Assembly (NCBI RefSeq): GCF_018336915.1 | Contig: NZ_CP064923.1 | Location: 3,960,001 to 3,992,000 of the forward strand | DNA length: 32,000 nt | Reading direction: 5' to 3' | Source: Acaryochloris marina S15 | GTDB taxonomy: Bacteria; Cyanobacteriota; Cyanobacteriia; Thermosynechococcales; Thermosynechococcaceae | Shown here: positions 482-27,573 of the stretch, one piece after another | How positions within the stretch are numbered: the first letter of the stretch is position 1 | How the letters are laid out: each line of letters begins with the position of its first letter | Made by a program: the position numbers and the translations under genes | The notes under the pieces: model-generated | Database searches by the model: none | Told to the model about the DNA's origin: nothing | Seen by the model: only the letters and a program-made list of their open reading frames with translations

Positions 482-749
482 TGTGCTGACATGATCCCAT
501 TGCACCTTAAATCTATTGCAGCTTATGAGTTTTTGAGATTTGCAGATGAGCCTCTTAGCGGCCCCTTTCCTGAGATTTTGCATCCAAGGTAGTGGCGATG
601 ACCGCACATCTTTTTCCCCGATTCACGTTCCTTCATTCAAACTATGAGGCAATGGATTTTGGGGAGAGTGCCGGAAAGCAGTTCATTACTAGATTATGCA
701 ACTTCTGCTTTTCTGGGCATTCTCAATAGTAAGGGCTATTACAGGGAAT

Positions 750-3700: not shown

Positions 3701-6700
3701 AATGGAGGCTTTTCCTGCCAAACAATTTGAGATGAGGGCCAGGAATCTGATTTATGCCTATGTTACTCCTTGGCAGGAACCCCTCAAAAACTGCATCCCT
3801 CAGTTAAAACAAGGGTTTAAGATTGGTATTGAAGCTGGAGACCTTGAATATACAGCTTATGGCATCCACCACTATATTCAGTTTCTGTTCTTTTCTGGTG
3901 CTGATTTAGCCACCGTCGACCAAGAGAGTCATGCCAGTAGCAAAGTCCTAGAAAATTGTCGACAAGAAGGAATACTATTGGGTAGCCAATTATTCCACCA
4001 AACAGTCTTAAATCTGATCAACTCTAGGGATAAACCCTGGGAAATTGAGGGTGATATTTTTCAAGAATCTAAACATTTACAAGATTGGCAAGATAATAAT
4101 TTAGATGTTTTTATTGCATCACTGTATATCAATAAATTAGTAATCAGCCACCTATTTTACAACCCTGATTTGGGCGTGAAATATGCAGAGATAGCAAATA
4201 ATTCTTATGACGGATTAACAGGAGAAATTCAACTTTCATACTTGCACTTTTTTCGGGCACTCTGTTATTTAGCAATTCTCGATCAAGATACGACTGAAGA
4301 ACGCATCACTCGCTTGTCTCAGGTTGACAACGACATAGAAAATCTGGAGCGGTTTTCACGCCAGGCTCCGATGAATTTTCAGCATCAGGTCGATTTAATT
4401 AAAGCTGAAAAACATCGAGTGTTAGATCACAAGCTGGAGGCGATTGACGCTTATGATCTCGCGATTGCTGGTGCGAAGGAGAATGGTTTCATCCAGGAAG
4501 AAGCCCTGGGCAACGAGCTAGCGGCCAAGTTCTACCTCGACTGGGGCAAAGATAAATCTGCTGCGGCCTATATGCAAGAAGCTTATCGCTGTTATACCCG
4601 CTGGGGAGCCAAAGCTAAAACTGATGATCTCGAACAGCGCTATCCTGACTTACTTCAACCCATTCTCCAGCAGATATCACAGCCCCTAAATCCTCTGGGC
4701 ACCTTAGCGAGTCTTGTGAATACGAACCTATCGATTCATTCCTCGGCTTCAGTAACTGCGACCCGACCCAACCTCAATACTAATCTCGATTTTGCGACTC
4801 TTCTAGAAGGCGCTCAAGCCCTTTCAGACAGTCTCCATCTCGATGAATTACTAGAGAAGCTAACCCAGATGATGTTGAAAAATTCTGGGGCAGATAGCTT
4901 AGTATTGCTATTGCCAGAAACAGATAGTTCCTGGCATCTCAGAGCTACTGCTACCTCTGAGATGACACAACTGGTTTCTGAACCTCTCATTGGCAATCCC
5001 AACTTACCCGTTCAACTGATTCAATATGTCCAACATACCCAAGAGATTCTGGCTGTTGATGACCTAGATACCGACTTAGCTATCCTTGATGCTTACCTTC
5101 AGCAACATCACCCTTGCAGTGTTCTGTGCATGCCCATCCGGTATCAAGGCAATCTCAATGGCCTACTGTATTTGCAGAATCAATCGACTGCGGGGGTATT
5201 TACGTGCGATCGCATCACTGTACTCAACTTCCTCTGTTCCCAAGCTGCCATCTCCCTAGAGAATGCCAGACTTTATGAAGCGGCCACCCTCAGATCCTCC
5301 ATCATCGAAGCTGCCATTGATGGCATGGCGATATTAGAAGACGATAAATACATCTATCTAAATGAAGTCCATGTCTCTCTGTTTGGCTACGAAGTAGATG
5401 AGTTGATGGGGCAAAGCTGGGAAACACTCTATTCTTCAGCAGAGATACAACGTCTACAGACCATCGCCTTCTCAATCTTGGCAGAGACAGGGCAATGGTC
5501 AGGAGAAGCCACCGCAACTCGCAAAGATGGCAGTTCATTTGCCGAAGAAATCAGTTTATTTTTGCTAGATGATGGCAAGCTGATTTGTATCTGTCGAGAT
5601 ATGAGCGATCGCAAAACGGCAGCAGAGAACCTGCAGTTCAGCGAACAACGATTTCGCCGTGCCTTTGAAGATGCCCCCTTCCCCATCATGATCCATGCGG
5701 AAGATGGTGAAGTCCTCCAAGTCAATGCCACCTGGACAGCATTAACAGGCTACACTCAAGCAGATATTCGGACAACAGCCGACTGGACACTCAAAGCATT
5801 TGGGGAAGAAATCCACCCTAAAAACTGGGAGCAAGGCGAGTTCTTTATTCACACCCGAGATAGACAAAATTGCCTTTGGCAATTCAGTTCTGCGGCTTTA
5901 GAAGTCTTATCTGATGGCCGTCAAATCGTCATTTCCATGGCCGTAGATGTCACCCAACGGCGGCAGGCAGAAGATGATTTAAAGCAGGCCAATCAACAGC
6001 TAGAAGAGTACTCCCAAACCCTGGAACAAAAAGTTAAAGAACGCACTCAAGCCCTGCAGATGGCTAAAGAACGAGCAGATAATGCCAGCCAAGCCAAAAG
6101 TAAATTTCTTGCCAGTATGAGCCATGAACTCCGCACTCCCCTCAACGGTATCCTGGGCTATGCTCAAATCCTAAATCGCTCCACCACCTTGACGAAAAAG
6201 GAACGTCATGGTGTCCAGGTCGTTCATCAATGTGGTTCCCATCTCCTCACCCTGATCAATGACATTCTCGATCTTTCTAAAATTGAGGTTGGCAAACTTA
6301 AACTGAGCCCTACCAACACTCACTTACCTACCTTGCTGGCCAGTGTAGTCGAAATGTGTAAAGTCAAGGCTCAGCAAAAGGGCCTAGGGTTTAGCTACAT
6401 ACCGAGTCCTCAGCTCCCCGAAGTGGTGCTTGTTGATGAAAAATGTCTGCGGCAAGTGTTGATCAATTTATTGGGCAACGCGGTTAAATTTACCCACCAA
6501 GGCAGTGTTACCCTACGCGTCGATGTCCTCAACATCACTGAGACTCAGGCGTCACTCCTATTCCAAGTTATTGATACGGGGGTGGGCATTGACTCTGCCG
6601 ATCTAGCCAAACTATTTGAAGCTTTTGAACAGGTCGGAATTCTACAAAAGCAAGGGGAAGGAACAGGGCTAGGATTAGCGATTAGTCAACAGATTATGCA

Positions 6701-7724
6701 ACTGATGGGGGGAGAAATTCAGGTTGCTAGTCAACCGGGCAAAGGGAGTGAGTTTTCCTTTAGTTTGCTGCTCTCTCTCACTGGAGATAGGGGACGGCTT
6801 CAACCCCATCTCAGCCACCAGAACATTATGGGTTACCAAGGAAAACGGCAGCAGATCTTGGTCATTGACGATCTCCAGGAGAATCGGGAAGTCATCGTCA
6901 ATCTACTACAACCGCTGGGTTTCAATCTTTGTGAGGCCGAGCAGGGTCAGGACGGGTTAGACCATATACGCAAGCAGCAGACTGATCTGGTGATTACTGA
7001 CTTATATATGCCCATGATGGATGGTTTTGAATTTTTGAAACAGGTTCGTCATGATCCAGATCTGACACCAATAAAAGTCATTGCTTCATCTGCATCGGTT
7101 GACCCATCCAATCAGCAAATGGCTCTGGCTGTAGGGAGTAATGCTTTTTTAGTTAAACCTATTCAAGAGCAAGATTTACTAGAGGCGATTGCCGAGCAGC
7201 TGCAACTGGAGTGGGTGTACGAAACAACATTAGAAACTCAGCAAATCGAACCGCTGCCAACGGCATTACTGCTCCCCTCCTCCTCAATATTGGCATCTTT
7301 ACAAATGCTGGCCCAGCAAGGTTTGATCCAAGATCTACAACAGCAACTCAACCCGTTGCTTCACGTTAATGCTGCCTACGAACCGTTTGTTGAGCAGCTC
7401 TCATCCCTGGCTAAAGGGTCTAAGGTTGAGGAAATAGCAGCGCTATTGCAGCAATACCAAGAACAACAGTCTTCACCTCTATCAGATCTACCGAACAACG
7501 CACAGGCCCTAAAGACCTATCCATCTCCGGAAAATTTAGAGCGGCTGTTAGACATGGCAAGCAGAGGCAGTGTGTTTGAGATTATGGATGAATTATTAGT
7601 GATTCAGTCCACAGATCCCCAATGCCACTATTTTTGCCAAGAGCTCTTACGGTGGTCAGAGCAATTCGAAGTGGGTAAAATTCAAGTCTTTTTACAAGCA
7701 GCAGTGGATAAAGCCAAGGCTTAG
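750..7724 (+). CDS. Giant multi-domain dual kinase: Ser/Thr protein kinase, AAA_16-type P-loop NTPase, helical/TPR-like region, GAF, 2x PAS, HisKA, HATPase_c, receiver, duplicated helical tail.
   Basis: One 7-kb ORF. Motifs read directly:
- Ser/Thr kinase: [22 protein letters not shown]
- P-loop: GFSGIGKT (nt 1755-1778)
- H-box: SHELRTPLN (His codon 6123-6125)
- HATPase boxes: [20 protein letters not shown]
- Receiver: [14 protein letters not shown]...VKP
The track start at 696 adds a hydrophobic junk peptide. The ATG at 750 (MEHSS...) is preferred. Confidence 0.9.
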
Positions 7725-7757: not shown

Positions 7758-9890
<2,133 letters not shown>

Positions 9891-10772
9891 TCACTGCAGA
9901 AATGGATTGATCGAAATTGGTGTTTTTTGCAGCTTAGCCCCTGTAGGGGGGACAAAGCGAAAGGCATCGGCTGGGACCGAAGGGGGATTGGTGTAATGAA
10001 TCACTTTCTCTTGAATGTTGAAGTTTAAGGTTTGGTGGTCTTGACTGGCCATTTGCAAATACTTAATTTCAGACGTCAAGGCATCAATATAGGCTTGCAG
10101 CTGATATCCCTTGGCTTGATCCAAATAGGAGTAGGTGGTGTATTTAGCCCCATTTAGATGTTGGGTATCAGACTTGAGTCCAGCCTGATCCGGTGCCAAT
10201 TTAGTTTGCAAAATCTCCGCCAATTTATCTTCAGACACATTCACCAATAGAGCAATATTGTCTTTTCCGGCACTATTGCGGATGGTGGAAAAAAGTCTGG
10301 ATAACATGCCAGACAGAAAGTTGTCATTTGCATTTTGGAATTGTTGGTAACTGATCAGAGAGTAGACGTTGTTAACCAGATCATGAGTCCAGACCTGTTG
10401 GCCATCCGAAACCAGCAGATATTGTCTTCCTCCTTCGCCTGCCGGATCCATAAAAGTAATCTTGGTTCTGAATCGATTGGGTTCTTCTGAAATCGTTTGA
10501 ATTTGGGCAACGGAGACCAGATCCGCCCCTGGTGTTTTGGCCTTAAGGGTCAATTCTGATTTGAGCAAGTAGCGATCGTTGGCCAAGAACTGTCGCATTG
10601 CCCGAATGAGCAGGCCATAGTCAACCTTTTTCTCCGCTGAATGCACGAAGGGTTGGGCAACGGGCTGCAGACGTGGAGACTGAGACCAGGCCGGTTGAAC
10701 GAGCAATCCCACCATAAAAGCCGACAACAAACAGACATGGCGCTGATAGCCACAAAATTTCGTCATATTCAT
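9891..10772 (-). CDS. Exported hypothetical protein, possibly with a LolA-like/lipoprotein-sorting-like fold.
   Basis: N-terminal signal peptide (LLSAFMVGLLVQPAWSQ). The C-terminal ...PADAFRFVPPTGAKL... resembles the end of LolA-like domains. The track start at 10775 is a TTG, with an ATG at 10772. The product call is tentative. Confidence 0.5.
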   Translation of the reverse strand: MNMTKFCGYQRHVCLLSAFMVGLLVQPAWSQSPRLQPVAQPFVHSAEKKVDYGLLIRAMRQFLANDRYLLKSELTLKAKTPGADLVSVAQIQTISEEPNRFRTKITFMDPAGEGGRQYLLVSDGQQVWTHDLVNNVYSLISYQQFQNANDNFLSGMLSRLFSTIRNSAGKDNIALLVNVSEDKLAEILQTKLAPDQAGLKSDTQHLNGAKYTTYSYLDQAKGYQLQAYIDALTSEIKYLQMASQDHQTLNFNIQEKVIHYTNPPSVPADAFRFVPPTGAKLQKTPISINPFLQ

Positions 10773-10857
10773 CAACCACCTATGCCAGATATCGCCTGCC
10801 GTTCTAGCCTGGATTTTTGCCGTAGCCAGTCGGGCTTTGGCATAGGATGCCCCATTG

Positions 10858-11331
10858 CTACCCTGCTTTTTTCAGGGGTGGGCGATGATTTGTTTGAGTG
10901 CGAATCTGCTGACGAACATCGGAATAGGCATAGGCCCTGCCGTCACCCTGCTTCTGCATATGCTTAATCACAAATTCTTGATTATCGAGATAGGCCCCGA
11001 CGCCAAATTGTTCCGCCGCATTTTTGAAGGCATCAGCAATGGCCCGCTCAATCGGTGTGCCGTAGGTTTGCCTCTCTGGATAGGCTTTGTCGTTGCCCAC
11101 TCCTTCACGGGTTAAGCCTTCAAGGGTGAGCTGGCAGCGCACCACCACATATTCCCCCACAATCACCGGATCGCTATAGGTCACCGACCAGTCAGGGCAA
11201 ACCTCATTGAGGCGCTTCCGAATGCGCTGCCAAGGGATAAAGAACCATTTACCGCCCCCCGGAAGCACTCGATCTTGATGGTCGGCGGCTGGAAAGGGGG
11301 CTTTAAGTTGGTCGAGGCGTTCAGTCTTCAT
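10858..11331 (-). CDS. Rad52/Sak-like (DUF1071-type) single-strand annealing protein candidate.
   Basis: 157 aa. The pattern F.IPWQRIRKRLNEV.PDWS ... GVGND ... ERAIADAFKNAAEQFGVGAYL matches the Rad52/Sak core signature (beta-hairpin region followed by ..A..A.K.A...FG.G.YL). Recognised by eye only. Confidence 0.5.
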   Translation of the reverse strand: MKTERLDQLKAPFPAADHQDRVLPGGGKWFFIPWQRIRKRLNEVCPDWSVTYSDPVIVGEYVVVRCQLTLEGLTREGVGNDKAYPERQTYGTPIERAIADAFKNAAEQFGVGAYLDNQEFVIKHMQKQGDGRAYAYSDVRQQIRTQTNHRPPLKKAG

Positions 11332-12644: not shown

Positions 12645-13307
12645 TCAACCCAGGACAACCGAGCTGAGAAATACAGCACCCATACCGCTCAGAACAAACC
12701 CGGCAAATCGCAGATTCAACAGACCTTGGCTCTGATTCTTTTTCTGAAGGGCTCTGCCAATGGCCCAGGCAGCCAAACTAATTGCTAGCTGGATGGAGAC
12801 AAACCCTAGCAGATAGGAAATGGTAGGCGTCATCTCAGCGCCAACGATGGCTTCACCATAGGCATAGCCATGAAACATACCGGAAACGGCCCCCAACAGC
12901 GATATCAGCCAGACATTCGTTTGTAATCCTCGGGCTAAAATCAGGCCAAATGCCAGGACTGAAGCCGAAATAAAGGCTTCAGGAGCCGGTAAGTCTAGGG
13001 CCTGTAAATGGATGCCTGTTCCTGCTAGGGACCCCAACACAAACAAAATCGGCACCATCGCTCCTTTGCGCATCAGGGCTGCGACGAGTCCGGCGGCAAT
13101 CACAAAGGCCAGATGATCAATCCCAATCACGGGGTGTCCCATCCCAGACATAAACCCTTCAAAAGCGTTGGCAGGTAGACGCCCATCCAAAGGATGATGG
13201 GCTAGGGCAGGGGATGAACAGGTTAATAAAGTGATAATCCCTAAAGTAATGCCAAGTCCTAGCCGTCGGCTGGGCATAGTGCTGCGGGATAGGGTGGAAA
13301 TGGTCAT
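12645..13307 (-). CDS. hupE: HupE/UreJ-family Ni/Co transporter (here most likely cobalt uptake for the nitrile hydratase).
   Basis: Signal peptide ending ...SPALA|HHPLDG, the HupE signature GMGHPVIGIDHLAF, and multiple TM helices. The track start at 13343 is a TTG. The ATG at 13307 has GAGGA ~10 nt upstream. Confidence 0.85.
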   Translation of the reverse strand: MTISTLSRSTMPSRRLGLGITLGIITLLTCSSPALAHHPLDGRLPANAFEGFMSGMGHPVIGIDHLAFVIAAGLVAALMRKGAMVPILFVLGSLAGTGIHLQALDLPAPEAFISASVLAFGLILARGLQTNVWLISLLGAVSGMFHGYAYGEAIVGAEMTPTISYLLGFVSIQLAISLAAWAIGRALQKKNQSQGLLNLRFAGFVLSGMGAVFLSSVVLG

Positions 13308-13343
13308 CGATTGGCTTTCCTCAGGTAGATGATGCAAATTCAA

Positions 13344-13703
13344 TTAGGAACAGGGTTCACTTTTACAATCCAGCAGTTGGGTCATTTGAGCCTCCAGCTC
13401 ACCAGCAGCAATGACCCCTGACTCAACAGCCACTTTTTCTAGGGCGGTTAACCAACAGTGATAATAGTCCCATTCTGGGTCATCTAGGGAATGGGTGGTT
13501 TCCCACTCATTGATGGTTTCGATCAGGGTCTGACGAAAGGCTTCCCATTCAAAATGGCCTTGCTTTGATAGGGCAATAGCAACCCCAAAGGCCATTTTCT
13601 CCCAATCTCGATCAAAATGCAGGTGACCGTCTTGGCGTGGAGGCGATTCTTCCGGAGACCCCATCAAACTCGTCGCTGCGAAGTGCTCAAATTGAGTAAA
13701 CAT
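13344..13703 (-). CDS. Nitrile hydratase accessory protein (small beta-subunit homologue, NhlE/NhhG/P14K type).
   Basis: DWEKMAFGVAIALSKQG parallels the beta-subunit N-terminus [16 protein letters not shown] encoded 1 kb upstream. It lies immediately after nthA. The ATG at 13703 has GGGAGG 9 nt upstream. Alternative starts are 13712 and 13742. Confidence 0.75.
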   Translation of the reverse strand: MFTQFEHFAATSLMGSPEESPPRQDGHLHFDRDWEKMAFGVAIALSKQGHFEWEAFRQTLIETINEWETTHSLDDPEWDYYHCWLTALEKVAVESGVIAAGELEAQMTQLLDCKSEPCS

Positions 13704-13719
13704 GACCGTCATCCTCCCA

Positions 13720-14343
13720 CTAGACTTGCACGGTGGCAACACCCATCATTGCTTCTGGGGTCAGTAAATCAGCTAGTTGAGCTTCACTGAGGCCCTCAGT
13801 TCCCGCTGGACGCATGGGCAGCACCCACCAGCGAATTTGGGCACTGCTGTCCCAGACTCGCACTTCTACAGAATCGTCCAAGGTGACGCCGAACTCTTTG
13901 AGGACGACACGAGGTTCCCTCACCACCCGTGCCCGAAAGGTCGGATCTTTAAACCAGTAGGGAGGCAAACCGAGGGTGGGCCAGGGATAACAAGAACATA
14001 AGGTACAAACAATGACGTTATGTACTTCAGGGGTGTTCTCGACAATTCGCATATGCTCCCCTTCCGCTCCAGACATCCCTGCGGGAAAGTCCAGTTCTTG
14101 ACAGGCGGCATTACAGTCTGCCAAGAGCCGCTGCTTGAATTCCAGATCGACCCAGGCTTTGGCGACCAATTTGGCTCCGTTAAACGGTCCCATTTCCGTG
14201 TCAAAATAGCCCAGAATTTGATCGACTGTCTTGCCCGTAATAATCCCTTTTTCGATCAACAACGACTCCAGGGCTTTGACCTTAGCAGCACTGTAGGTTT
14301 CACGATCAGCGCCATATTTAAATCCAGGATAGTTACTCGGCAT
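13720..14343 (-). CDS. nthA: Nitrile hydratase alpha subunit, cobalt type.
   Basis: The metal-binding claw V-C-T-L-C-S-C is encoded at nt 13990-14007 (TGT ACC TTA TGT TCT TGT on the minus strand). Thr in the third position marks Co-type enzymes; Fe-type enzymes have Ser. Confidence 0.93.
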   Translation of the reverse strand: MPSNYPGFKYGADRETYSAAKVKALESLLIEKGIITGKTVDQILGYFDTEMGPFNGAKLVAKAWVDLEFKQRLLADCNAACQELDFPAGMSGAEGEHMRIVENTPEVHNVIVCTLCSCYPWPTLGLPPYWFKDPTFRARVVREPRVVLKEFGVTLDDSVEVRVWDSSAQIRWWVLPMRPAGTEGLSEAQLADLLTPEAMMGVATVQV

Positions 14344-14346
14344 AAT

Positions 14347-15093
14347 CTAGGCGGCGTCCAAATAAACTTCAAAAATGTCGTTGTAATAAACCGACTTCGG
14401 CTCTGTTAGGGATTCAGGCCAAATATCTTCGGGCTGGAACAGCAAGCTGTACACAGGCATGGGTGTACCAATCCCATCTTCCGTAGGGAAGAAGTAGGTG
14501 AAGGCTCCTTCGTAAACCAGAACCACAACCGCTTCTCTGTCTCGCAACTGCCCCGGCAAACGACTATGGGCACCGGGGTGAACGTTTTTGACTTTGACCC
14601 GATCTCCCACCTTAAATTTGGGAGGAGCTGGGGCAGGTCGCATCGGCGAGTCCCCTTCTCGCAAATACTTTTCTACTTGGGTGTCGATCCCAGCTTTGCC
14701 ACCCTTGGGTAGGGGAGCGGCTGCTTTGGCACTATCTTCTAAGAACTCTGCGGTGCGGGTATCTAGTTCTTCCTGGGTAATGTAGCCTTCTTCCACAAAG
14801 AAGCCAGAAATGCCCCCCAGCCATTTTTCGTAATACCGCAACCGAAAATACTCAAAGGGATGCATGGCTTCGGCCCCTTGGCGCAGGTGCCCCCAAGTCC
14901 AGAAGCTCTTGAATTGGGTGGGAACCTTGGCAATCTCATATTTCGGGATGGAGGTATTGAGATGATTGCTGAGGGCCATCATAGCGGTATGGATACCAAA
15001 GATGCGCTTTTCCCAGGGTTCAACAAATACCTGTTTTTCGACGTTAACGGGATCTAGTCCTTCTAGACCCCCAAGATTATGCTGTAGTTTCAT
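14347..15093 (-). CDS. nthB: Nitrile hydratase beta subunit.
   Basis: [12 protein letters not shown]...[10 protein letters not shown]-terminus and SH3-like C-terminus ([12 protein letters not shown]...PGHSRLP-like). Its ATG (15093-15091) overlaps the TGA (15092-15090) of the upstream GTPase gene. It lies 3 nt upstream of nthA. Confidence 0.9.
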
Positions 15094-16082
15094 GCGGTTA
15101 CCTCTGCCATCAATGGGCGGGAAGCCAAGCAAGTCTGAAAACCCTGACGCAGCTCTGCTTCCTCTAAGTTTCTGCCAATAAAAACCAGTTCATTGCGGCG
15201 GGTTTCACCGGGACGCCAGGGTTTACCGGGTCTGCCGTCCAAGGTCATATGCACCCCTTGAAAGACAAACCGACGATCGGCTTCATCCATATCCAAAATG
15301 CCTTTCATGCGGAACAGGTCTGGACCCCGAGCTTGGACCAGCTGGTAAAGCCACCGATTAAGCTTGACGCTGTCCACGGTCCCCGTCTCGGTAATGGCGA
15401 CGGAAGAAACGGTTTGATCATGTTCATGGGCATCTTCGTCTAAAAACTCTGGATCGATGCTGAGGGCATGGCTGAGGTTAAAGGCTTGGACTCCTAGGAG
15501 CTGGTTCAGATCAATATTGCAGTTGGTGGTGGGATGTAGGGTTGCGATCGCATTCATGCTGCGCACCCGTTGGGTCAGAGTGGTCAGCACTTCTGGCGGC
15601 ACCAAATCCTGCTTATTCAGCAAAATTACGTCAGCAAAGGCGATTTGCTCTTGGGCTTCATTACTCTCCCAGTGGTCCCAAATATGCTTGGCATCCACCA
15701 CCGTCACCACTGCATCCAGCTGAGTTTGCCGCAGCATCACTTCATCCATAAAAAAGGACTGAATCACGGGGGCCGGATCGGCAAGGCCCGTGGTTTCAAT
15801 CACCAAGTGGTCAAAGCGGTCTTGCCGCTGCATGAGGTTACCAATAATCCGAATTAAGTCTCCTCGAACCGTGCAGCAAATGCAGCCATTGTTCATTTCA
15901 AAGACTTCTTCATCGGCGTCGATCACTAGCTGATGGTCGATACCAACCTCACCAAATTCATTGACGATCACAGCGATGCGCTGGTTATGCTCTTCCGTCA
16001 GAATTCGATTGAGTAAGGTGGTCTTCCCGGCCCCTAAGTACCCTGTTAAAACAGTGACTGGAATCTTTTGGATCAATGCCAT
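15090..16082 (-). CDS. COG0523 (CobW/HypB/UreG-class) metallochaperone GTPase.
   Basis: Walker [13 protein letters not shown], the metal-binding GCICC motif, LNKQD (NKxD), and a CobW C-terminal domain. Confidence 0.9.
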
Positions 16083-16095
16083 AGCCTCTCCTGAA

Positions 16096-17031
16096 TTAAC
16101 TCAACACCGTCATGACTCGAAACCCAATGGTCCGGTTTAAGCCCTGTTGGTCATATCCCGAACGGCTGGCCGAGCGGAGTCTCTCGGGAGGGTCTAGCCA
16201 ACCACCTCCACGAATAGCTCGCACGGTTCCCTGAGCTAGGGCTTTATGGCGATAGTTTGGCTGCCAACAATCGGCACACCATTCCCAAACATTGCCATGC
16301 ATATCGTGTAACCCCAAGGCATTAGGGGCAAAGCTCCCGACCTCTTGGGTTTGTCGCCGATAGTTCCCCGTTGTCTCACCGGCATAGGAATAGGTACTCA
16401 CATAATCTGCCCATTCACTGGTGATCGTGGCTCCGGTGTTGAAGGGGGTTTGGGTTCCTGCTCGACAAGCCTGTTCCCACTGAGCTTCATTTGGCAATTG
16501 ATAGGTCCGTCCGGTTTTATGACTGAGGCGCGTACAAAATTCAACGGCCTCTAGCCAAGAGATGCTTTCTACGGGACGGAGCGACCCCTGAAAATGAGCA
16601 GGGAATGGATCTAGCTCTCGCTCTACGGTTGGCAACGCCGCGACTGCAGCCCACTGCACTTGGGTAATGGGATATTTACTAATAAAAAAGGCAGGGACGG
16701 TGACGGCATGTCGAGGCCGTTCTTGAGCCAACGCCAGGTTTTCAGAACGGGAGGACCCCATCCAGGATTTACCCGATGAAATGGCTACCATTTCTAGGCT
16801 ATGCCCGGATTTTAATTCTTCTAGAAAGTATTTATTTTTTAGCTTTTCAAGGCCAACTAACTGACCGTTTTTATTAAGACTTGGAAACTCATATTCAAAA
16901 TGTTGTATATCAGCTAAAGACAAAGAATTAGGGTTAAAAAAACTGACACTTGTTAGCTTGTCTTGAATTGCAACTGCAAGGGCAATACTCCCTAATCCGG
17001 CAGTTTGCATAAATCTACGACGTTTTATCAC
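16096..17031 (-). CDS. Tat-exported FGE-sulfatase (SUMF1/PvdO-like) domain protein.
   Basis: With the GTG start the N-terminus reads [20 protein letters not shown], a twin-arginine signal. The C-terminal ~230 aa carry FGE-family blocks ([22 protein letters not shown]). It ends 13 nt upstream of the GTPase gene, with AGGAGAGG in the gap. Confidence 0.8.
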
Positions 17032-18625: not shown

Positions 18626-18703
18626 ATTCTTTTAGGGTTTCTTCTCAAGTATTACAGGGCAGACTAGTAGAACTGATCGAATAAACCAGCTTTGGGAGCA
18701 GGT

Positions 18704-19657
18704 ATGGTGAATTCAGAGCATGTGCAAATCCTGGAAAAAGGGACTGAAGCCTGGAATCAATGGCGGAAGGACAACCCAACAGTGAGTCCAGACTTACAAG
18801 GGGCCAATCTGAGTGGGAAAGACTGCTGCGAGATTAACCTCAGTGGGGCCAATCTAAACCAAGCCAACCTGAGCCGCACTTTCATCCGCTGGGCTAATCT
18901 GAGCCAAGCTCAATTGATCGGCGCACAGCTAACGGGGACAGATTTAAGCGGCACCAATCTGGAACATGTGAACCTCAGCCAAGCCAATCTCCAGGGGGCA
19001 ACAATGCGATGGGTAGACCTCTCCTTTGCCAATCTCACCCAAGCGAATCTCCAGGGAGCAACCCTAAGCGGTTCCAATCTCTGTCACTCCACCTTAACGG
19101 AGACTGATTTTAGACGGGCTGAATTTCGCTGGGCCGATATGCGAGGGGCCGACCTATTGGAAGCTGACTTAACCTGGGCCGATCTCCGGGGTGCCGATCT
19201 CAGATCTGCTGCCCTTGAATCTACTATTGCTATTTCTGCAGATTTTACCCAGGCCATTTTTACAGGGGCTTGTTTGCAGAACTGGGAAATCAGTATTGAC
19301 ACCAAACTCGATGATATTGAGTGCCTTCATATTTATCTGCAAGCAGACCAACAAGATCGTCAGCCACCGGAAGGGGACTTTACCGCCGATGTGTTCAGAA
19401 AGCTGGTGCAACCCAAGCTAGCAACTCTGGATTTAATCTTTATGGATGGTATTAACTGGCTGGCTTTTCTAACCGCCTTTCAATCGCTATGTACTAAATT
19501 TGAGCAGGATGAGATTGAAATTCGCGATGTTGAAAAAAAACATGGCGGAACTTATAGCATTCGCCTGAAGGTGGATAAGCATTCAGATCTGGAGAATATT
19601 GAAGCTTTTCTTAAACAGGCTTATGACCAACAACTCCTAACGACTAGCAAAGTTTAG
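18704..19657 (+). CDS. Pentapeptide-repeat protein with a ~120-aa non-repeat C-terminal domain.
   Basis: About 33 consecutive A(D/N)LXX pentapeptides (ANLSGANLNQANLSRTFIRWANLSQAQL...). GGAG lies 5 nt upstream of the ATG at 18704. The track start at 18692 is a TTG. Confidence 0.9.
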   Translation: MVNSEHVQILEKGTEAWNQWRKDNPTVSPDLQGANLSGKDCCEINLSGANLNQANLSRTFIRWANLSQAQLIGAQLTGTDLSGTNLEHVNLSQANLQGATMRWVDLSFANLTQANLQGATLSGSNLCHSTLTETDFRRAEFRWADMRGADLLEADLTWADLRGADLRSAALESTIAISADFTQAIFTGACLQNWEISIDTKLDDIECLHIYLQADQQDRQPPEGDFTADVFRKLVQPKLATLDLIFMDGINWLAFLTAFQSLCTKFEQDEIEIRDVEKKHGGTYSIRLKVDKHSDLENIEAFLKQAYDQQLLTTSKV

Positions 19658-23112: not shown

Positions 23113-26100
23113 GTGCCAATCGAAATAGGTCCGCTTGTTGGGGCGATCACAAAAATTGCCACACCTATTGCAGTCACTAAACTGCAACGGAATGAGGCCG
23201 TGATTAAACTGCTCAAGCAATTTGGTCTGGATCCTGAACACCCGCCTGCTGACTTTAGTGGTGTGTATGCCTATGCTCTAGTGGAATATTGTGTGGGCAA
23301 GCCTCCGCTGATGTTGGAGTTATTGCGGCAGGACGAAATTCGCCAGATTTTCAGGGAGTCATTTGAGCAAGATAATCCGAATATTCTGCTAGCTGAAGGG
23401 GAGCGTTATGTTCATGACTTTGCCTTAGGAGATGAGATTAGGGCTAAGGAAATTGACTACCCGCTTGAATTTGCACGTTTCAGTGCCATTTTTTTAGAAG
23501 TTGTCAATCGGACGAAAAAGCCTGCAGAGGTCAGACGCGATCAGAATATTGCCAATCTTCGTGATGGGTTAGATTTTGTCCAAGAACGACTTAATCGATT
23601 ACCAACAGTAGAAGCGATGCGAGCAGAGATGGCTCGCTTGGTTCCTCAAGCTGAACTGATGCTGCCAGGTGATAGCTCTGGGTGTAAAGAGAGTTGCCGA
23701 GCATATAGTCTGGCTCAGCAAATGCGCGGGTGGTTTGAGACGTTGGACTATGAGTTTGAGTCTTATGAGGCTTGGGAGGCAAACTACTTTGAGTGGATTA
23801 TTACTTATCGGGTGAGTCGGCGGCGGTTTAACCGTGTGCTGGTGAGAGGTGTGGATGGCGAGGGTGGCGTTGCAGATATTGAAGCTCTAGCGCAGTCGGT
23901 AAAAGGCCAACGTACTGATGAAGGATGGTTGGTGAGTAGTCGCCGATTGAGTCAGGCAGCAAAGGATTTGGTGGCCCAAACTGAGAATGAGTGTTTGGAG
24001 TGTTATACCTTTGATGAATTGTTGGATCAGGATGCAGATTTTAGTGGCTATTTGACTTGGCTGGAATCGGAGATTCTGAGCCGGAAGATTGATGAACAAT
24101 ATGTACCCCTAGCCTGCACGAAAGAAGAATTTAGTCCTCAAACTCAGCAACGAATTGCGTTAAGTCGATATGGCGAAGGAAATGGTTGGATTGATGGCTA
24201 TGTGGATGTGTGGTTGGATGACCCTGCCAAAGAACATATTTCTGTATTGGGAGAGTTTGGAACAGGAAAGACTTGGTTTACGCTGCACTATGCCTGGAAG
24301 GCTTTGCAAGACTATCGCGAAGCACAGCAACGAGGAACTGAGCGGCCTCGATTGCCTTTGGTGATTCCGCTGCGGGACTATGCCAAGGCTGTGAGTGTAG
24401 AGTCGCTGTTTTCGGAGTTTTTCTTTCGCAAGCATGAGATCCCGATTCCGGGATATTCGGCTTTTGAGCAGCTTAATCGAATGGGGAAGCTGCTGCTGAT
24501 CTTTGATGGCTTTGATGAGATGGCGGCGCGGGTGGATCGGCAGCAGATGATCAATAACTTTTGGGAGCTAGCCAAGGTCGTGGTGCCAGGGTCAAAGGCT
24601 ATTCTGACCTGTCGGACAGAACATTTCCCGGAAGCCAAGGAAGGGCGAGATTTACTGAATGCTGAGTTAAAGGCTTCGACCGCTGCCCTAACAGGTGAAC
24701 CGCCTCAATTTGAAGTGCTGGAGCTGGAAAAGTTTAATGAGGAGCAAATCCGGCAAGTGCTGTCCTTTCGAGCGGATGAGGAATCGGTGCAGCAAATTAT
24801 GGGCTATCCCCAGCTTTTAGATTTGGCCTGTCGCCCTGTGATGACGGAGTTGATTTTGGATGCGTTGCCGGAGATTACTGCTGGCAAACCAATCGACTTA
24901 GCTCGGGTGTATCTGTATGCTGTGCGGCGGAAGATGGAGCGGGATATTAAGGCAGAGCGGACCTTTACCTCCTTGGCGGATAAGCTCTATTTTCTGTGTG
25001 AGCTGTCTTGGGAAATGATCTTGTCGGATCAGATGCGACTGAACTATAAGCTTTTCCCAGAAAGGATTCGGAAACTATTTGGCCCGGTGGTACAGGAACA
25101 AACGGATCTGGACCATTGGCACTACGACATGATGGGGCAGTCGATGCTAATTCGGGATGCAGAGGGAAATTACAGCCCTGCCCATCGGTCACTGCTAGAG
25201 TTTTTTGTCGCCTACAAGTTGGTGGCCTTGTTGGGGGTTTTGGCTCCTGATTTTATTGAAATTGCTCAGGAGCAACCCCATGTCGATCAAGCGTTACTTC
25301 CACAGGAATATGGCTGGTGGGATTATTGCCAGCGACAAGTGGATGAGCAAGGTACTATCCAAAAGATTGCTCCTTTACTTCGGTTTAGATCTGGAGATAG
25401 GGAGAGTCTTCAGCCATTGCTAGTGCCTGCCCAATTGGCTAAGGCGATTTTAGATTTGGCTGTTCCAATGCTTGATTCAGCCCTAATGGTGGAACGGTTG
25501 CTTCCCCAAATTCAAGCTACTCGGGGACAAACTCAGGAGCAGGCAGGGTATTGGGGTGGTAACCTAACGCAGCTTTTGGTTGATAACAATCCTTGGGCGT
25601 TGGAAACCCATGATTTGAGCAACACCCATTTACAAGGGATTGATTTTGCAAATGTCAGCTTGCTACGAGTGAATTTAGCCAGAGCTAGCTTGGCAGAAGC
25701 CCATTTAAATAAAGTTCTAGGGACCATTTATACCATTGCTGTTAGCCCTGATGGTCAACTGTGGGCTATCGGAGAGGGCAACGGCAGACTGCAGATGTGG
25801 GATGCCAGTACCGGACGAGTGTTGTGGATTCGACAAGAACATTCTGCAGCAATTCAGTCGGTGGCCTTTAGCCCCGATGGCCAGCGGATTGTCAGTGGCA
25901 GTAAGGACCAAACCCTCCAACTCTGGGATGCCCAGGGCAACCCCATCGGCCAACCCTGGACAGGCCATACAGCTGGGGTCTTGTCGGTGGCCTTTAGCCC
26001 CGATGGCCAGCGGATTGTCAGTGGCAGTAATGACCAAACCCTCCGACTCTGGGATGCCCAGGGCAACCCCATCGGCCAACCCTGGACAGGCCATACAGCT

Positions 26101-27573
26101 GGGGTCTGGTCGGTGGCCTTTAGCCCCGATGGCCAGCGGATTGTCAGTGGCAGTAATGACCAAACCCTCCGACTCTGGGATGCCCAGGGCAACCCCATCG
26201 GCCAACCCTGGACAGGCCATACAGCTGGGGTCTTGTCGGTGGCCTTTAGCCCCGATGGCCAGCGGATTGTCAGTGGCAGTTATGACCAAACCCTCCGACT
26301 CTGGGATGCCCAGGGCAACCCCATCGGCCAACCCTGGACAGGCCATACAGATTGGGTCTGGTCGGTGGCCTTTAGCCCCGATGGCCAGCGGATTGTCAGT
26401 GGCAGTAATGACCAAACCCTCCGACTCTGGGATGCCCAGGGCAACCCCATCGGCGAACCCTGGACAGGCCATACAGCTGGAGTCTTATCGGTGGCCTTTA
26501 GCCCCGATGGCCAGCGGATTGTCAGTGGCAGTAATGACCAAACCCTCCGACTCTGGGATGCCCAGGGCAACCCCATCGGCCAACCCTGGACAGGCCATAC
26601 AGCTGGGGTCTGGTCGGTGGCCTTTAGCCCCGATGGCCAGCGGATTGTCAGTGGCAGTAATGACCAAACCCTCCGACTCTGGGATGCCCAGGGCAACCCC
26701 ATCGGCCAACCCTGGACAGGCCATACAGCTGGGGTCTTGTCGGTGGCCTTTAGCCCCGATGGCCAGCGGATTGTCAGTGGCAGTGATGACCAAACCCTCC
26801 GACTCTGGGATGCCCAGGGCAACCCCATCGGCCAACCCTGGACAGGCCATACAGATTGGGTCTGGTCGGTGGCCTTTAGCCCCGATGGCCAGCGGATTGT
26901 CAGTGGCAGTGATGACCAAACCCTCCGACTCTGGGATGCCCAGGGCAACCCCATCGGCCAACCCTGGACAGGCCATACAGCTGGGGTCTTGTCGGTGGCC
27001 TTTAGCCCCGATGGCCAGCGGATTGTCAGTGGCAGTGATGACCAAACCCTCCGACTCTGGGATGCCCAGGGCAACCCCATCGGCGGACCCTGGACAGGCC
27101 ATACAGCTCAGGTCTGGTCGGTGGCCTTTAGCCCCGATGGCCAGCGGATTGTCAGTGGCAGTGATGACCAAACCCTCCGGCTCTGGGATGCCCAGGGCAA
27201 CCCCATCGGCCAACCCTGGACAGGCCATACAGCTCAGGTCTGGTCGGTGGCCTTTAGCCCCGATGGCCAGCGGATTGTCAGTGGCAGTGATGACCAAACC
27301 CTCCGGCTCTGGGATGCCCAGGGCAACCCCATCGGCCAACCCTGGACAGGCCATACAGCTGGGGTCTTGTCGGTGGCCTTTAGCCCCGATGGCCAGCGGA
27401 TTGTCAGTGGCAGTGATGACCAAACCCTCCGACTCTGGGAGGTCGATACGGGCAAATGTTTAGCAGTCGTTCAAACAGGTTTATGTGGTGATATGAACTT
27501 TAGTGGCGCTCTGGGTTTAACAGAAGCCCAAAAGATGGCCTTGAAAGCGATGGGGGCTTACTGTAACGAATAG
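23113..27573 (+). CDS. NLR-like STAND NTPase: unknown helical N-terminus, restriction-endonuclease-like module, NACHT, short pentapeptide segment, 14 WD40 repeats.
   Basis: GTG start with GGGAG 7 nt upstream.
- Walker A: GEFGTGKT (nt 24250-24273)
- Walker B: LLLIFDGFDEM (nt ~24490-24522)
- Pentapeptide-like: LSNTHLQGIDFANVSLLRVNLARASLAEAHL
- Then 14 occurrences of the SPDGQ...LWD WD40 pattern
- Tail: ...GALGLTEAQKMALKAMGA. Confidence 0.93.
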   Translation: MPIEIGPLVGAITKIATPIAVTKLQRNEAVIKLLKQFGLDPEHPPADFSGVYAYALVEYCVGKPPLMLELLRQDEIRQIFRESFEQDNPNILLAEGERYVHDFALGDEIRAKEIDYPLEFARFSAIFLEVVNRTKKPAEVRRDQNIANLRDGLDFVQERLNRLPTVEAMRAEMARLVPQAELMLPGDSSGCKESCRAYSLAQQMRGWFETLDYEFESYEAWEANYFEWIITYRVSRRRFNRVLVRGVDGEGGVADIEALAQSVKGQRTDEGWLVSSRRLSQAAKDLVAQTENECLECYTFDELLDQDADFSGYLTWLESEILSRKIDEQYVPLACTKEEFSPQTQQRIALSRYGEGNGWIDGYVDVWLDDPAKEHISVLGEFGTGKTWFTLHYAWKALQDYREAQQRGTERPRLPLVIPLRDYAKAVSVESLFSEFFFRKHEIPIPGYSAFEQLNRMGKLLLIFDGFDEMAARVDRQQMINNFWELAKVVVPGSKAILTCRTEHFPEAKEGRDLLNAELKASTAALTGEPPQFEVLELEKFNEEQIRQVLSFRADEESVQQIMGYPQLLDLACRPVMTELILDALPEITAGKPIDLARVYLYAVRRKMERDIKAERTFTSLADKLYFLCELSWEMILSDQMRLNYKLFPERIRKLFGPVVQEQTDLDHWHYDMMGQSMLIRDAEGNYSPAHRSLLEFFVAYKLVALLGVLAPDFIEIAQEQPHVDQALLPQEYGWWDYCQRQVDEQGTIQKIAPLLRFRSGDRESLQPLLVPAQLAKAILDLAVPMLDSALMVERLLPQIQATRGQTQEQAGYWGGNLTQLLVDNNPWALETHDLSNTHLQGIDFANVSLLRVNLARASLAEAHLNKVLGTIYTIAVSPDGQLWAIGEGNGRLQMWDASTGRVLWIRQEHSAAIQSVAFSPDGQRIVSGSKDQTLQLWDAQGNPIGQPWTGHTAGVLSVAFSPDGQRIVSGSNDQTLRLWDAQGNPIGQPWTGHTAGVWSVAFSPDGQRIVSGSNDQTLRLWDAQGNPIGQPWTGHTAGVLSVAFSPDGQRIVSGSYDQTLRLWDAQGNPIGQPWTGHTDWVWSVAFSPDGQRIVSGSNDQTLRLWDAQGNPIGEPWTGHTAGVLSVAFSPDGQRIVSGSNDQTLRLWDAQGNPIGQPWTGHTAGVWSVAFSPDGQRIVSGSNDQTLRLWDAQGNPIGQPWTGHTAGVLSVAFSPDGQRIVSGSDDQTLRLWDAQGNPIGQPWTGHTDWVWSVAFSPDGQRIVSGSDDQTLRLWDAQGNPIGQPWTGHTAGVLSVAFSPDGQRIVSGSDDQTLRLWDAQGNPIGGPWTGHTAQVWSVAFSPDGQRIVSGSDDQTLRLWDAQGNPIGQPWTGHTAQVWSVAFSPDGQRIVSGSDDQTLRLWDAQGNPIGQPWTGHTAGVLSVAFSPDGQRIVSGSDDQTLRLWEVDTGKCLAVVQTGLCGDMNFSGALGLTEAQKMALKAMGAYCNE
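25861..27440 (+). repeat. In-frame tandem array of ~12.5 nearly identical 126-bp units (42-aa WD40 blades).
   Basis: GTGGCCTTTAGCCCCGATGGCCAGCGGATTGTCAGTGGCAGT recurs at 25861 + 126k for k = 0-12. Some units are 126/126 identical (25987 vs 26491; 26113 vs 26617). Confidence 0.97.

Follow-up and report, generated by a model that had tools for sequence, protein, structure and literature searches.

A homogenised WD40 repeat array with diversity at predicted top-face positions in an NLR-like gene of Acaryochloris marina S15

The explanation that we favor for the tandem repeats found in a large gene of the cyanobacterium Acaryochloris marina S15 is that they form the ligand-sensing domain of a bacterial NLR-like protein, in which the repeat units are homogenised within the array while their diversity is confined almost entirely to predicted top-face positions of a WD40 propeller and is selected for recognition (we give this reading a probability of about 70%). 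The gene is located on the forward strand (23113..27573) of a stretch of 32,000 nucleotides (contig NZ_CP064923.1, positions 3,960,001 to 3,992,000), which we call the window and to which all coordinates refer unless another locus is named. It is an intact, stand-alone NLR-like (STAND/NACHT) gene. We infer that selection, for new binding specificities or for several at once, maintains or drives the diversity of its repeats. The locus is an unusually clear bacterial instance of a pattern that is well documented in the allorecognition receptors of fungi and has so far only been suspected in bacteria.

The array was the only one detected in the window by Tandem Repeats Finder (25857-27440, period 126, 12.6 copies, 97% matches). 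It contains 12 full units of 126 bp (25858-27369, forward strand, in the frame of the open reading frame 23113..27573), numbered here so that unit i starts at 25858+126i and its codon k at +3(k-1), in the phase SVAFSPDG. The pairwise identity of these 12 units averages 97.0% at the nucleotide and 93.9% at the amino acid level, the reading frame is unbroken over the 1.6 kb of the array with zero indels, and a unit core of 40 nucleotides has 13 exact occurrences vs. 0 expected. A preliminary description made from the sequence alone had counted thirteen units of 126 bp. Twelve of them are indeed full, but the thirteenth (27370-27440, forward strand) matches the consensus only over its first 71 nucleotides, i.e., strands a-c of the last blade. 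The first WD40 repeat of the gene (25732-25857, forward strand) is diverged, with 44% nucleotide identity to the unit consensus, and has not been homogenised. The total is thus 14 WD40 repeats (one diverged, 12 full and one partial) and not 13 full units.

Variation among the 12 full units is restricted to 12 nucleotide columns, all of them within codons 16, 21, 32, 39, 40 and 42, and the other 36 of the 42 codons are invariant. The layout by codon is SVAFSPDGQRIVSGS-x-DQTL-x-LWDAQGNPIG-x-PWTGHT-x-x-V-x (x marking a variable residue), and the residues found were K/N/Y/D at position 16, Q/R at 21, Q/E/G at 32, A/D at 39, G/W/Q at 40 and L/W at 42, with codon 21 varying in one unit and codon 32 in two. 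The changes amount to at least 11 non-synonymous and three synonymous events. In all these details the preliminary description was accurate: its count of invariant codons was reproduced over the 12 full units, the codon variants that it named are all present (AAG/AAT/TAT/GAT, CAA/CGA/CGG, CAA/GAA/GGA, GCT/GAT, GGG/GGA/TGG/CAG and TTG/TTA/TGG), the four synonymous instances are located where it had placed them (CGG at 27178-27180 and 27304-27306, GGA at 26479-26481 and TTA at 26485-26487), and the G+C count of 78/126 in the consensus unit is, as it had stated, above the surroundings (ca. 0.48 in the remainder of the gene). At third codon positions the G+C content (GC3) reaches 0.67 in the array, compared with 0.475 for the N-terminal portion of the gene. 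Units 1-3 (25984-26361) and units 5-7 (26488-26865), both on the forward strand, differ by a single nucleotide over 378 and are a block duplication inside the array, detected by distance matrix, lag analysis and direct count. The first full unit has two private alleles (K16 and Q21), the pattern expected when the edges of an array are homogenised less.

The best sequence match of the protein in the PDB was 2YMU, the 14-blade WRAP domain of Nostoc punctiforme Npun_R6612 (E = 3.9e-220). An AlphaFold2 model of amino acids 832-1486, built with 43 orthologues, had a mean predicted local distance difference test score (pLDDT) of 82.6 and consisted of two blocks of high confidence, with a linker of low confidence between them (model residues 324-334). 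The top Foldseek match of this model was 2YMU again (E = 6e-69), and the 7-bladed designer propeller 7BIE superposed on it with a template modelling (TM) score of 0.98 and a root-mean-square deviation of 1.1 Å. The model therefore supports for the C-terminal part the double 7-bladed WD40 propeller that had been predicted at the outset. The variable residues were placed on the top face from a sequence-based rule, the model's secondary structure and the literature. According to the rule of Wu et al. (2012; PMC3419727), the top-face hotspots of a blade are R1, flanked by two bulky residues where strand a begins, R1-2, two residues before R1, and D-1, which precedes the tetrad Asp. Applied to the stretch V41-x42-S1-V2, codon 42 is R1 and codon 40 is R1-2; codon 39 adjoins R1-2, and codon 16 precedes D17 and is the D-1 hotspot. 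DSSP on the model puts residue 16 in the stretch from strand b to strand c, and strand a directly after residues 39-40. The earlier proposal that the variation sits at ligand-contact positions thus holds for four of the six codons (16, 39, 40 and 42, at or next to canonical hotspots) and does not for codons 21 and 32, which are not canonical hotspots. Nearly all the amino acid diversity is found at the positions flanking the conserved Asp of the b-c turn (16 and 18, the latter varying between strains) and the conserved Val with which strand a begins (39, 40 and 42), and these five positions are predicted, by the rule and the model, to be canonical top-face contact residues.

The changes are more clustered than chance would allow. 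With 95.7 non-synonymous and 30.3 synonymous sites in S15, non-synonymous changes at the hot codons made up 11 of 14 events (hot-codon non-synonymous plus all synonymous) vs. 31% if neutral (binomial P = 2.9e-4), and the restriction of 11 non-synonymous events to six codons or fewer had P = 0.001 by simulation. We also pooled S15 with the orthologous array of strain MBIC11017 (see below), counting events on a minimum spanning tree per codon. The seven hot codons then had 19 non-synonymous and 3 synonymous events, and the 35 framework codons one and 4, respectively (binomial P = 3e-4). The ratio of non-synonymous to synonymous divergence (dN/dS, or omega) was ca. 4.4 in the former and ca. 0.05 in the latter, so that the per-codon comparison suggested in the preliminary description gives an excess at the hot codons.

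A search with the N-terminal 873 amino acids retrieved a large orthologous family from filamentous and other cyanobacteria, with proteins of ca. 1490 amino acids, the same domain order and 60–65% identity. Fourteen WD repeats were near-universal among the 75 orthologous loci that could be analysed. Across these loci the mean proportion of synonymous differences (pS) within the array was 0.29–0.83, except in S15 (0.049) and MBIC11017 (0.085), no other being below 0.1. The internal amino acid identity of the arrays varied continuously between 0.4 and 0.92, and S15 is close to the upper end. The syntenic gene of ‘Moss Beach’ is 77% identical in its N-terminal part and carries 14 diverged units, with a within-array pS of 0.45 and the same GC3 as its flank. 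Its unit 2 (GC3 0.57) is the closest to the S15 unit, with 86% nucleotide identity vs. 76–80% for the others.

The array of MBIC11017 has nine repeats (one diverged, seven full and one partial, at 9890-10842 of its locus, L002). Its framework is identical to that of S15 in protein sequence. Two synonymous sites are fixed between all seven of its units and all 12 of S15 (GCA vs. GCC at column 75 and ACG vs. ACA at column 114), and its alleles are Y/D/S at codon 16, N/K at codon 18 (vs. Q), N at codon 39 (vs. A/D), Y/S at codon 40 (vs. G/W/Q) and L/W/R at codon 42; codon 18 is invariant inside S15 and differs between the strains. CCMEE 5410 has six repeats (1+4+1, three of them identical; L086 10980-11554), with a framework as in MBIC11017 and yet other hotspot alleles, and columns 75 and 114 are also fixed between S15 and all of its units. 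Each strain has therefore a homogeneous array of its own, with fixed synonymous differences, different hotspot alleles and blade numbers of 14, 9 and 6, in agreement with the concerted evolution plus local diversification that had been proposed from S15 alone.

A much closer pair is formed by MBIC11017 and MBIC10699, which differ by five nucleotides over the 3615-nucleotide gene and by none in the 3 kb downstream. Three of the five differences are in the array, one at codon 42 of unit 2 (TGG->TTG) and two at codons 16 (TAT->GAT) and 18 (AAC->AAA) of unit 5; the latter are 8 nucleotides apart and make unit 5 identical to unit 6. Hot nucleotides changed ca. 50 times as fast as the flanks (Fisher P = 2.4e-4). 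Each of the three changes reproduces the allele of another unit, and from their sequences they look like gene conversion.

Taken with synteny, these comparisons show that in the A. marina lineage copies of a single blade have taken the place of an original set of 14 diverged ones, the founder being closest to blade 2 of Moss Beach; the ancestral set is deduced from the fact that Moss Beach keeps 14 diverged blades at the same locus. Unequal recombination inside the array, together with gene conversion, has since kept the units alike. The evidence for this ongoing turnover consists of the block duplication, the changes in blade number, the synonymous sites fixed per strain, the less homogenised edges and the conversion-like swaps. 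Recombination inside the gene has also taken place between lineages, on the evidence of a mosaic allele (P0003, L082 3001-6003, from Logan SRR17348487) in which the first ca. 300 amino acids are similar to Moss Beach, with an insertion of ca. 30 amino acids in the NNH5/iREase region, and the C-terminal part is 97–100% identical to MBIC11017. An independent case of the same pattern is found in P0005 (L085 1001-4453, from an ENA metagenome), which is 65% identical and has four near-identical units of another type (SVAISPDGSWIASGG.DRTVKRWA...), whose variable codons are 16, 39, 40 and 42 together with 19, 25 and 26.

The likeness to the fungal HET-E/HET-D/NWD genes, to which the preliminary description had pointed, extends to the variable positions themselves. 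In the NWD family of Podospora anserina (HET-E, HET-D, HET-R and NWD2), which are NACHT-WD40 NLRs (Paoletti et al., 2007, PMC1805685; Dyrka et al., 2014, PMC4986451), positive selection has been reported at codons 7 and 9, which flank a conserved residue of the d-a loop, and at codons 25 and 27, which flank the conserved residue of the b-c turn (PMC1805685). The fungal 7/9 correspond to 40/42 here (around V41) and the fungal 25/27 to 16/18 (around D17), both pairs on the top face. Both systems share the NACHT plus WD40 architecture, units of 42 residues with very high internal identity (the fungal criterion being ca. 85% or more of internal repeat conservation, vs. 97.0% nucleotide and 93.9% amino acid identity in S15), differences in blade number between strains and units that group by strain. 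The differences are also clear. The fungal proteins have a HET or other fungal effector at the N-terminus, where S15 has NNH5 and an inactive restriction endonuclease fold; the S15 gene is bacterial, is not subject to repeat-induced point mutation (RIP) and has its shorter arrays in copies disrupted by insertion sequences (IS). The fungal family acts in heterokaryon incompatibility, and the S15 protein, known from its sequence, is an analogue and not a member of it.

A different origin for the pattern would be a one-off and very recent amplification, giving ca. 13 copies of one blade without ongoing concerted evolution or diversifying selection, after which mutations survived solely where the surface is least constrained. 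Amplification certainly occurred, the 14 diverged blades of Moss Beach being the ancestral state, and the literature reads such ‘recently amplified’ propellers as young (Dunin-Horkawicz / Pereira & Lupas and Hu et al.). We nevertheless consider this scenario unlikely. Neutral hotspots should not outpace their own synonymous sites, and the observed ratio is 4–8-fold (P ca. 3e-4). The unit is shared by at least five lineages with synonymous divergence (dS) of 0.2–0.8 in the flanks, so that the amplification is either not recent relative to the divergence of the strains or has spread between them. Besides, the two synonymous differences fixed in all 12 vs. all seven (and four) units imply homogenisation or re-amplification after the arrays separated, and near-identical strains differ by swaps of alleles between units.

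Several observations weigh against the favored explanation or qualify it, and the first two also favor the recent amplification. Codons 16, 39 and 40 are the most variable in the old, non-homogenised arrays too, in every age class of the family, i.e., they are the least constrained positions in all family arrays, and low or relaxed constraint explains part of the localisation. The hot-codon dN between the consensus units of S15 and MBIC11017 (0.85) is only ca. 1.5-fold the flank dS (0.555), and the claim of positive selection depends on the unusually low synonymous rate of the array itself. The numbers of events are small (14 in S15 and 27 pooled). The swaps of alleles between units are also an expected product of repeat misassembly. 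The shorter arrays of nine and six blades sit in genes disrupted by IS: that of MBIC11017 is split at codon ca. 74 by an IS630-like element (DDE_3 plus HTH, with an apparent TA target; L002 6223-7360), that of MBIC10699, also with nine blades, has the same interruption (L084 1859-2914), and that of CCMEE 5410 is in three pieces separated by two gaps, of which the first holds an IS with a DDE_Tnp_1 transposase and the second is ca. 1.5 kb long (L086 5900-6988 and 8590-10137). Because the sole intact copy (S15) keeps 14 blades and the disrupted ones have 9 and 6, the variation in blade number may reflect decay and not an adaptive polymorphism, and a functional allele may have to keep 2 x 7 blades. 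Unlike in Podospora, where units are exchanged with paralogues, no such exchange was found among the proteins searched, the units of the paralogues being 65–67% identical. Finally, neither PADLOC nor NCBIfam gave a confident assignment to a defence family: in PADLOC the WD region alone matched HEAT-ARM_XIII, with a weak match to mad8 (E = 0.0015), and NCBIfam EruA scored 16 bits vs. a cut-off of 1000.

Misassembly would also be relevant beyond the swaps, as the order, number or variants of near-identical units could have been reconstructed wrongly and the pattern be partly technical. The 378-bp near-perfect repeat of units 1-3 and 5-7 is beyond the resolution of short reads, and short-read metagenome and Logan assemblies do collapse the array to one hybrid unit (P0001, P0003 and L001). 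The S15 record, however, is a single contig of 5.88 Mb, it has the 14 blades that are the rule in the family and the frame is intact across the 1.6 kb. The same framework-plus-hotspot pattern was recovered in MBIC11017, MBIC10699 and CCMEE 5410, which were sequenced independently (finished or long-contig assemblies), and non-synonymous variants restricted to hotspot codons cannot arise by misassembly. An artefact is, on this evidence, very improbable.

Instead of selection on ordinary mutations, a diversity-generating retroelement (DGR) or a different mutator could have hypermutated the hotspot codons in a targeted way. All three synonymous variants of S15 also fall within the six variable codons (P = 0.004), a hint of localised mutation or of short imported patches, and DGRs diversify STAND-associated sensors in multicellular cyanobacteria (PMC10907252). 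The variable bases of the array are not adenine-specific, and the synonymous variants of MBIC11017 and CCMEE 5410 are in framework codons (27 and 30). The known targets of DGRs have C-type-lectin/FGS folds and not WD40. No reverse transcriptase was found among the open reading frames scanned, which are part of those in the window, and no template copy of the unit is present elsewhere in the window. Template-driven mutagenesis was rejected on these three grounds (no reverse transcriptase in the frames scanned, no template and no adenine bias), and hypermutation as a whole is the least probable of the alternatives that we have weighed.

Sources for the unit outside the gene were also considered. 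A search of the protein collection with a doubled array found no non-orthologous array more than 73% identical. The arrays of two paralogues, P0288 of S15 and P0310 of A. marina, are 65 and 67% identical to the S15 array, respectively, and have unit types of their own, so that, for the proteins searched, a shared pool of paralogues was discarded as the source of units. Both are nSTAND1-type STAND WD40 proteins whose WD arrays are also internally conserved; homogenised sensor arrays seem to be recurrent in the A. marina S15 genome, separately in each gene. A plasmid or mobile origin was dismissed as well, with no megablast match in PLSDB. Exact 45-mer and 27-mer cores of the unit were absent from JGI metagenome contigs, and the 45-mer was absent from IMG/VR.

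One aspect of the array that may be new is the slow synonymous clock of its framework. When S15 is compared with MBIC11017, dS amounts to 0.555 in the non-repeat part of the gene (0.38–0.91 by segment), with normal values in the region of the first WD repeat (amino acids 834-915, dS 0.59) and in the C-terminal tail (0.40), and eight syntenic neighbour genes have values between 0.50 and 1.03. In the 35 framework codons of the consensus units only two of 25.3 synonymous sites differ (dS 0.083), ca. 7-fold below the flanks; the probability of two or fewer differences is 5.6e-4 at the pS of the flanks and 0.009 at the lowest pS of any segment. The framework dS was 0.084 vs. ca. 0.5 in the flank for S15 and CCMEE 5410, and 0 vs. 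0.17–0.30 for MBIC11017 and CCMEE 5410. S15, MBIC11017 and two metagenomic lineages, with flank dS of 0.45–0.78, share the first 45 nucleotides of the unit without a single difference. The loci compared with the array of the window for the framework as a whole were L002, L086, L082 and L083. Neutral concerted evolution predicts a consensus that diverges at the neutral rate, and therefore something else acts on the framework. We tentatively propose, as a possibility that falls well short of an even chance, that the framework is under its own regime across the A. marina species complex, with synonymous change ca. 7-fold slower in every pair tested and hotspots that turn over fast.

Cassette exchange between strains, conservative or biased conversion and selection at the nucleotide level are candidates for the cause. 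In the first case, repeat cassettes would be exchanged between diverged strains with the identical framework as the recombination substrate, and an immune sensor would then be evolving in concert across a whole species complex. In the second, conservative or biased conversion would purge framework mutations. With either mechanism the DNA of a receptor scaffold would be kept constant while the residues that determine specificity diversify, and the slow clock, if confirmed, would be a new population-genetic feature. The relationships among the arrays mirror those of the flanks (S15 apart, MBIC11017 with CCMEE 5410), so that a uniformly slower clock fits somewhat better than a single horizontal transfer. 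GC-biased conversion was examined as the full cause of the high GC3 and the slow clock, and explains part at most. Six of the eight synonymous differences between the S15 unit and unit 2 of Moss Beach are AT->GC, but both substitutions fixed between S15 and MBIC11017 read as GC->AT against Moss Beach (apparent direction). About one third of the third-position bases of the unit are A/T (GC3 0.67), yet just two framework synonymous sites differ between the strains. The founder blade (the orthologue of Moss Beach blade 2) was already at a GC3 of 0.57, and the rise in GC3 is confined within the family to the two related arrays of S15 and MBIC11017. Long open reading frames run through the array in other frames or on the opposite strand (25736-27463 on the forward strand, and 25717-26472, 26280-27080 and 26485-27423 on the reverse), with up to 575 amino acids; most simply they are a by-product of periodic sequence without stop codons, and if any of them were functional it could constrain synonymous sites.

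The whole gene codes for 1486 amino acids from a GTG start, on a single contig of 5,881,945 bp, and its product is WP_212662416.1 / QUY45279.1 of A. marina S15 (exact look-up). The preliminary description had taken the repeats to be the sensor array of an NLR-like protein, and Pfam does place NNH5, NA-iREase1 and NACHT upstream of the WD40 repeats, a tripartite layout with the NACHT in the center and the 14 WD40 repeats at the C-terminus. All features are on the forward strand. NNH5, the NACHT N-terminal helical domain 5 (amino acids 6-137, 23128..23523; PF22736, E = 1.5e-47), is a presumed effector or adaptor module. It is followed by NA-iREase1, a NACHT-associated inactive restriction-endonuclease fold (amino acids 200-305, 23710..24027; PF22722, E = 1.8e-40) with a weak match to Mrr_cat. 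The NACHT NTPase module (amino acids 376-550, 24238..24762; PF05729, E = 1.5e-7, 31.9 bits vs. a gathering score of 26.7) contains the Walker A sequence GEFGTGKTW (24250-24276, motif GxxGxGK[ST]) and the Walker B sequence LLLIFDGFDE (24490-24519, motif hhhhD[GAS]hDE). Between the NACHT-associated helical region and the propellers there is a pentapeptide-repeat-like stretch (amino acids 834-865, 25612..25707; PF00805, E = 0.0016, under the gathering score) that is kept in the family consensus. After the array comes a unique C-terminal tail (EVDTGKCLAVVQTGLCGDMNFSGALGLTEAQKMALKAMGAYCNE) with the stop codon (27441..27573), conserved across the family, in which the motif …NFSGALGLTEAQKMALKAMGA… is common throughout. 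In such a protein, binding of a ligand on the top faces of the propellers would release NACHT-driven oligomerisation, this would activate the N-terminal NNH5/iREase-fold module, and the module would act in a conflict response (anti-phage or non-self).

Among described proteins, the closest parallel in the propellers is the WRAP of N. punctiforme Npun_R6612 (2YMU), also a cyanobacterial STAND ATPase with 14 near-identical blades in two 7-bladed propellers. In repetitive prokaryotic WD40 proteins including WRAP (Dunin-Horkawicz et al., 2014, cited in PMC9218822; Hu et al., 2017, PMC5587647), there are, as here, few or no synonymous differences between units, and the hotspots are the diverse positions. 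WRAP has a different N-terminal STAND architecture, its alignment to the 42-residue unit of S15 requires one gap per repeat, and the WRAP-type operon includes a TIR- (or caspase-) STAND partner, while S15 has no TIR-STAND gene next door. What S15 adds is that the syntenic Acaryochloris orthologues expose the ancestral diverged array and its later turnover directly. The tripartite design of effector, NACHT and repeat sensor is shared with the bNACHT proteins (Kibby et al., bioRxiv 10.1101/2022.07.19.500537), which are enriched in cyanobacteria and among which beta-propeller sensors and NNH-type helical domains have been catalogued. None of the experimentally tested members is closely related to the S15 protein, and an anti-phage role may be suggested here by analogy.

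Much of the background had been published already. Works cited in PMC9218822 report that the WD40/TPR repeats of bacterial STAND proteins are highly conserved internally and are probably linked to innate immunity and rapid turnover, the hotspot positions are the diverse ones in repetitive prokaryotic WD40 proteins (PMC5587647), and it has been suggested that the repeats of bacterial NLRs might follow the fungal regime (bioRxiv 10.1101/2020.01.06.895854). In the literature searched we found no explicit demonstration of that regime in bacteria. Bacterial NLR-like proteins are now seen as relatives of eukaryotic innate immune receptors. The locus provides a natural series at one syntenic position, from 14 diverged blades to a re-amplified and homogenised 14-blade array in an intact gene and to shrunken arrays in IS-disrupted ones. 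It identifies specific residues that can be swapped in tests of specificity, and makes it testable whether homogenisation plus hotspot diversification is a shared strategy, ancient or convergent, of intracellular receptors.

The gene is surrounded by ordinary chromosomal genes, which code for a methyltransferase, a pentapeptide protein, a DUF4259 protein, a 639-amino acid protein (VCPO_2nd-like in the orthologues), a 309-amino acid protein, an extracytoplasmic function (ECF) sigma factor and a pyridine-nucleotide oxidoreductase. Clustering of the neighbours over 84 related loci gave no partner gene conserved across genera, only synteny within the genus, and a conserved partner was therefore dismissed. 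A separate gene for a pentapeptide-repeat protein is located 3.5 kb upstream (18692-19657). Elsewhere in the window, a 2342-amino acid multidomain sensor (696-7724, forward strand) combines a Ser/Thr kinase, an AAA_16 (STAND-like) ATPase, GAF, PAS, HisKA, HATPase_c and a receiver domain. On the reverse strand, a cluster at 12645-17031 contains HupE/UreJ, nitrile hydratase alpha and beta, an extra beta-N-like open reading frame, a CobW-family GTPase and an FGE-sulfatase-domain protein, and resembles an operon for a cobalt-type nitrile hydratase that includes metal-handling genes. Also on the reverse strand, a small Rad52/Rad22-family protein (10858-11331, E = 4.7e-9), unusual for a bacterial chromosome, is coded near an NAD-dependent DNA ligase (7758-9890, reverse strand) and may be phage-derived.

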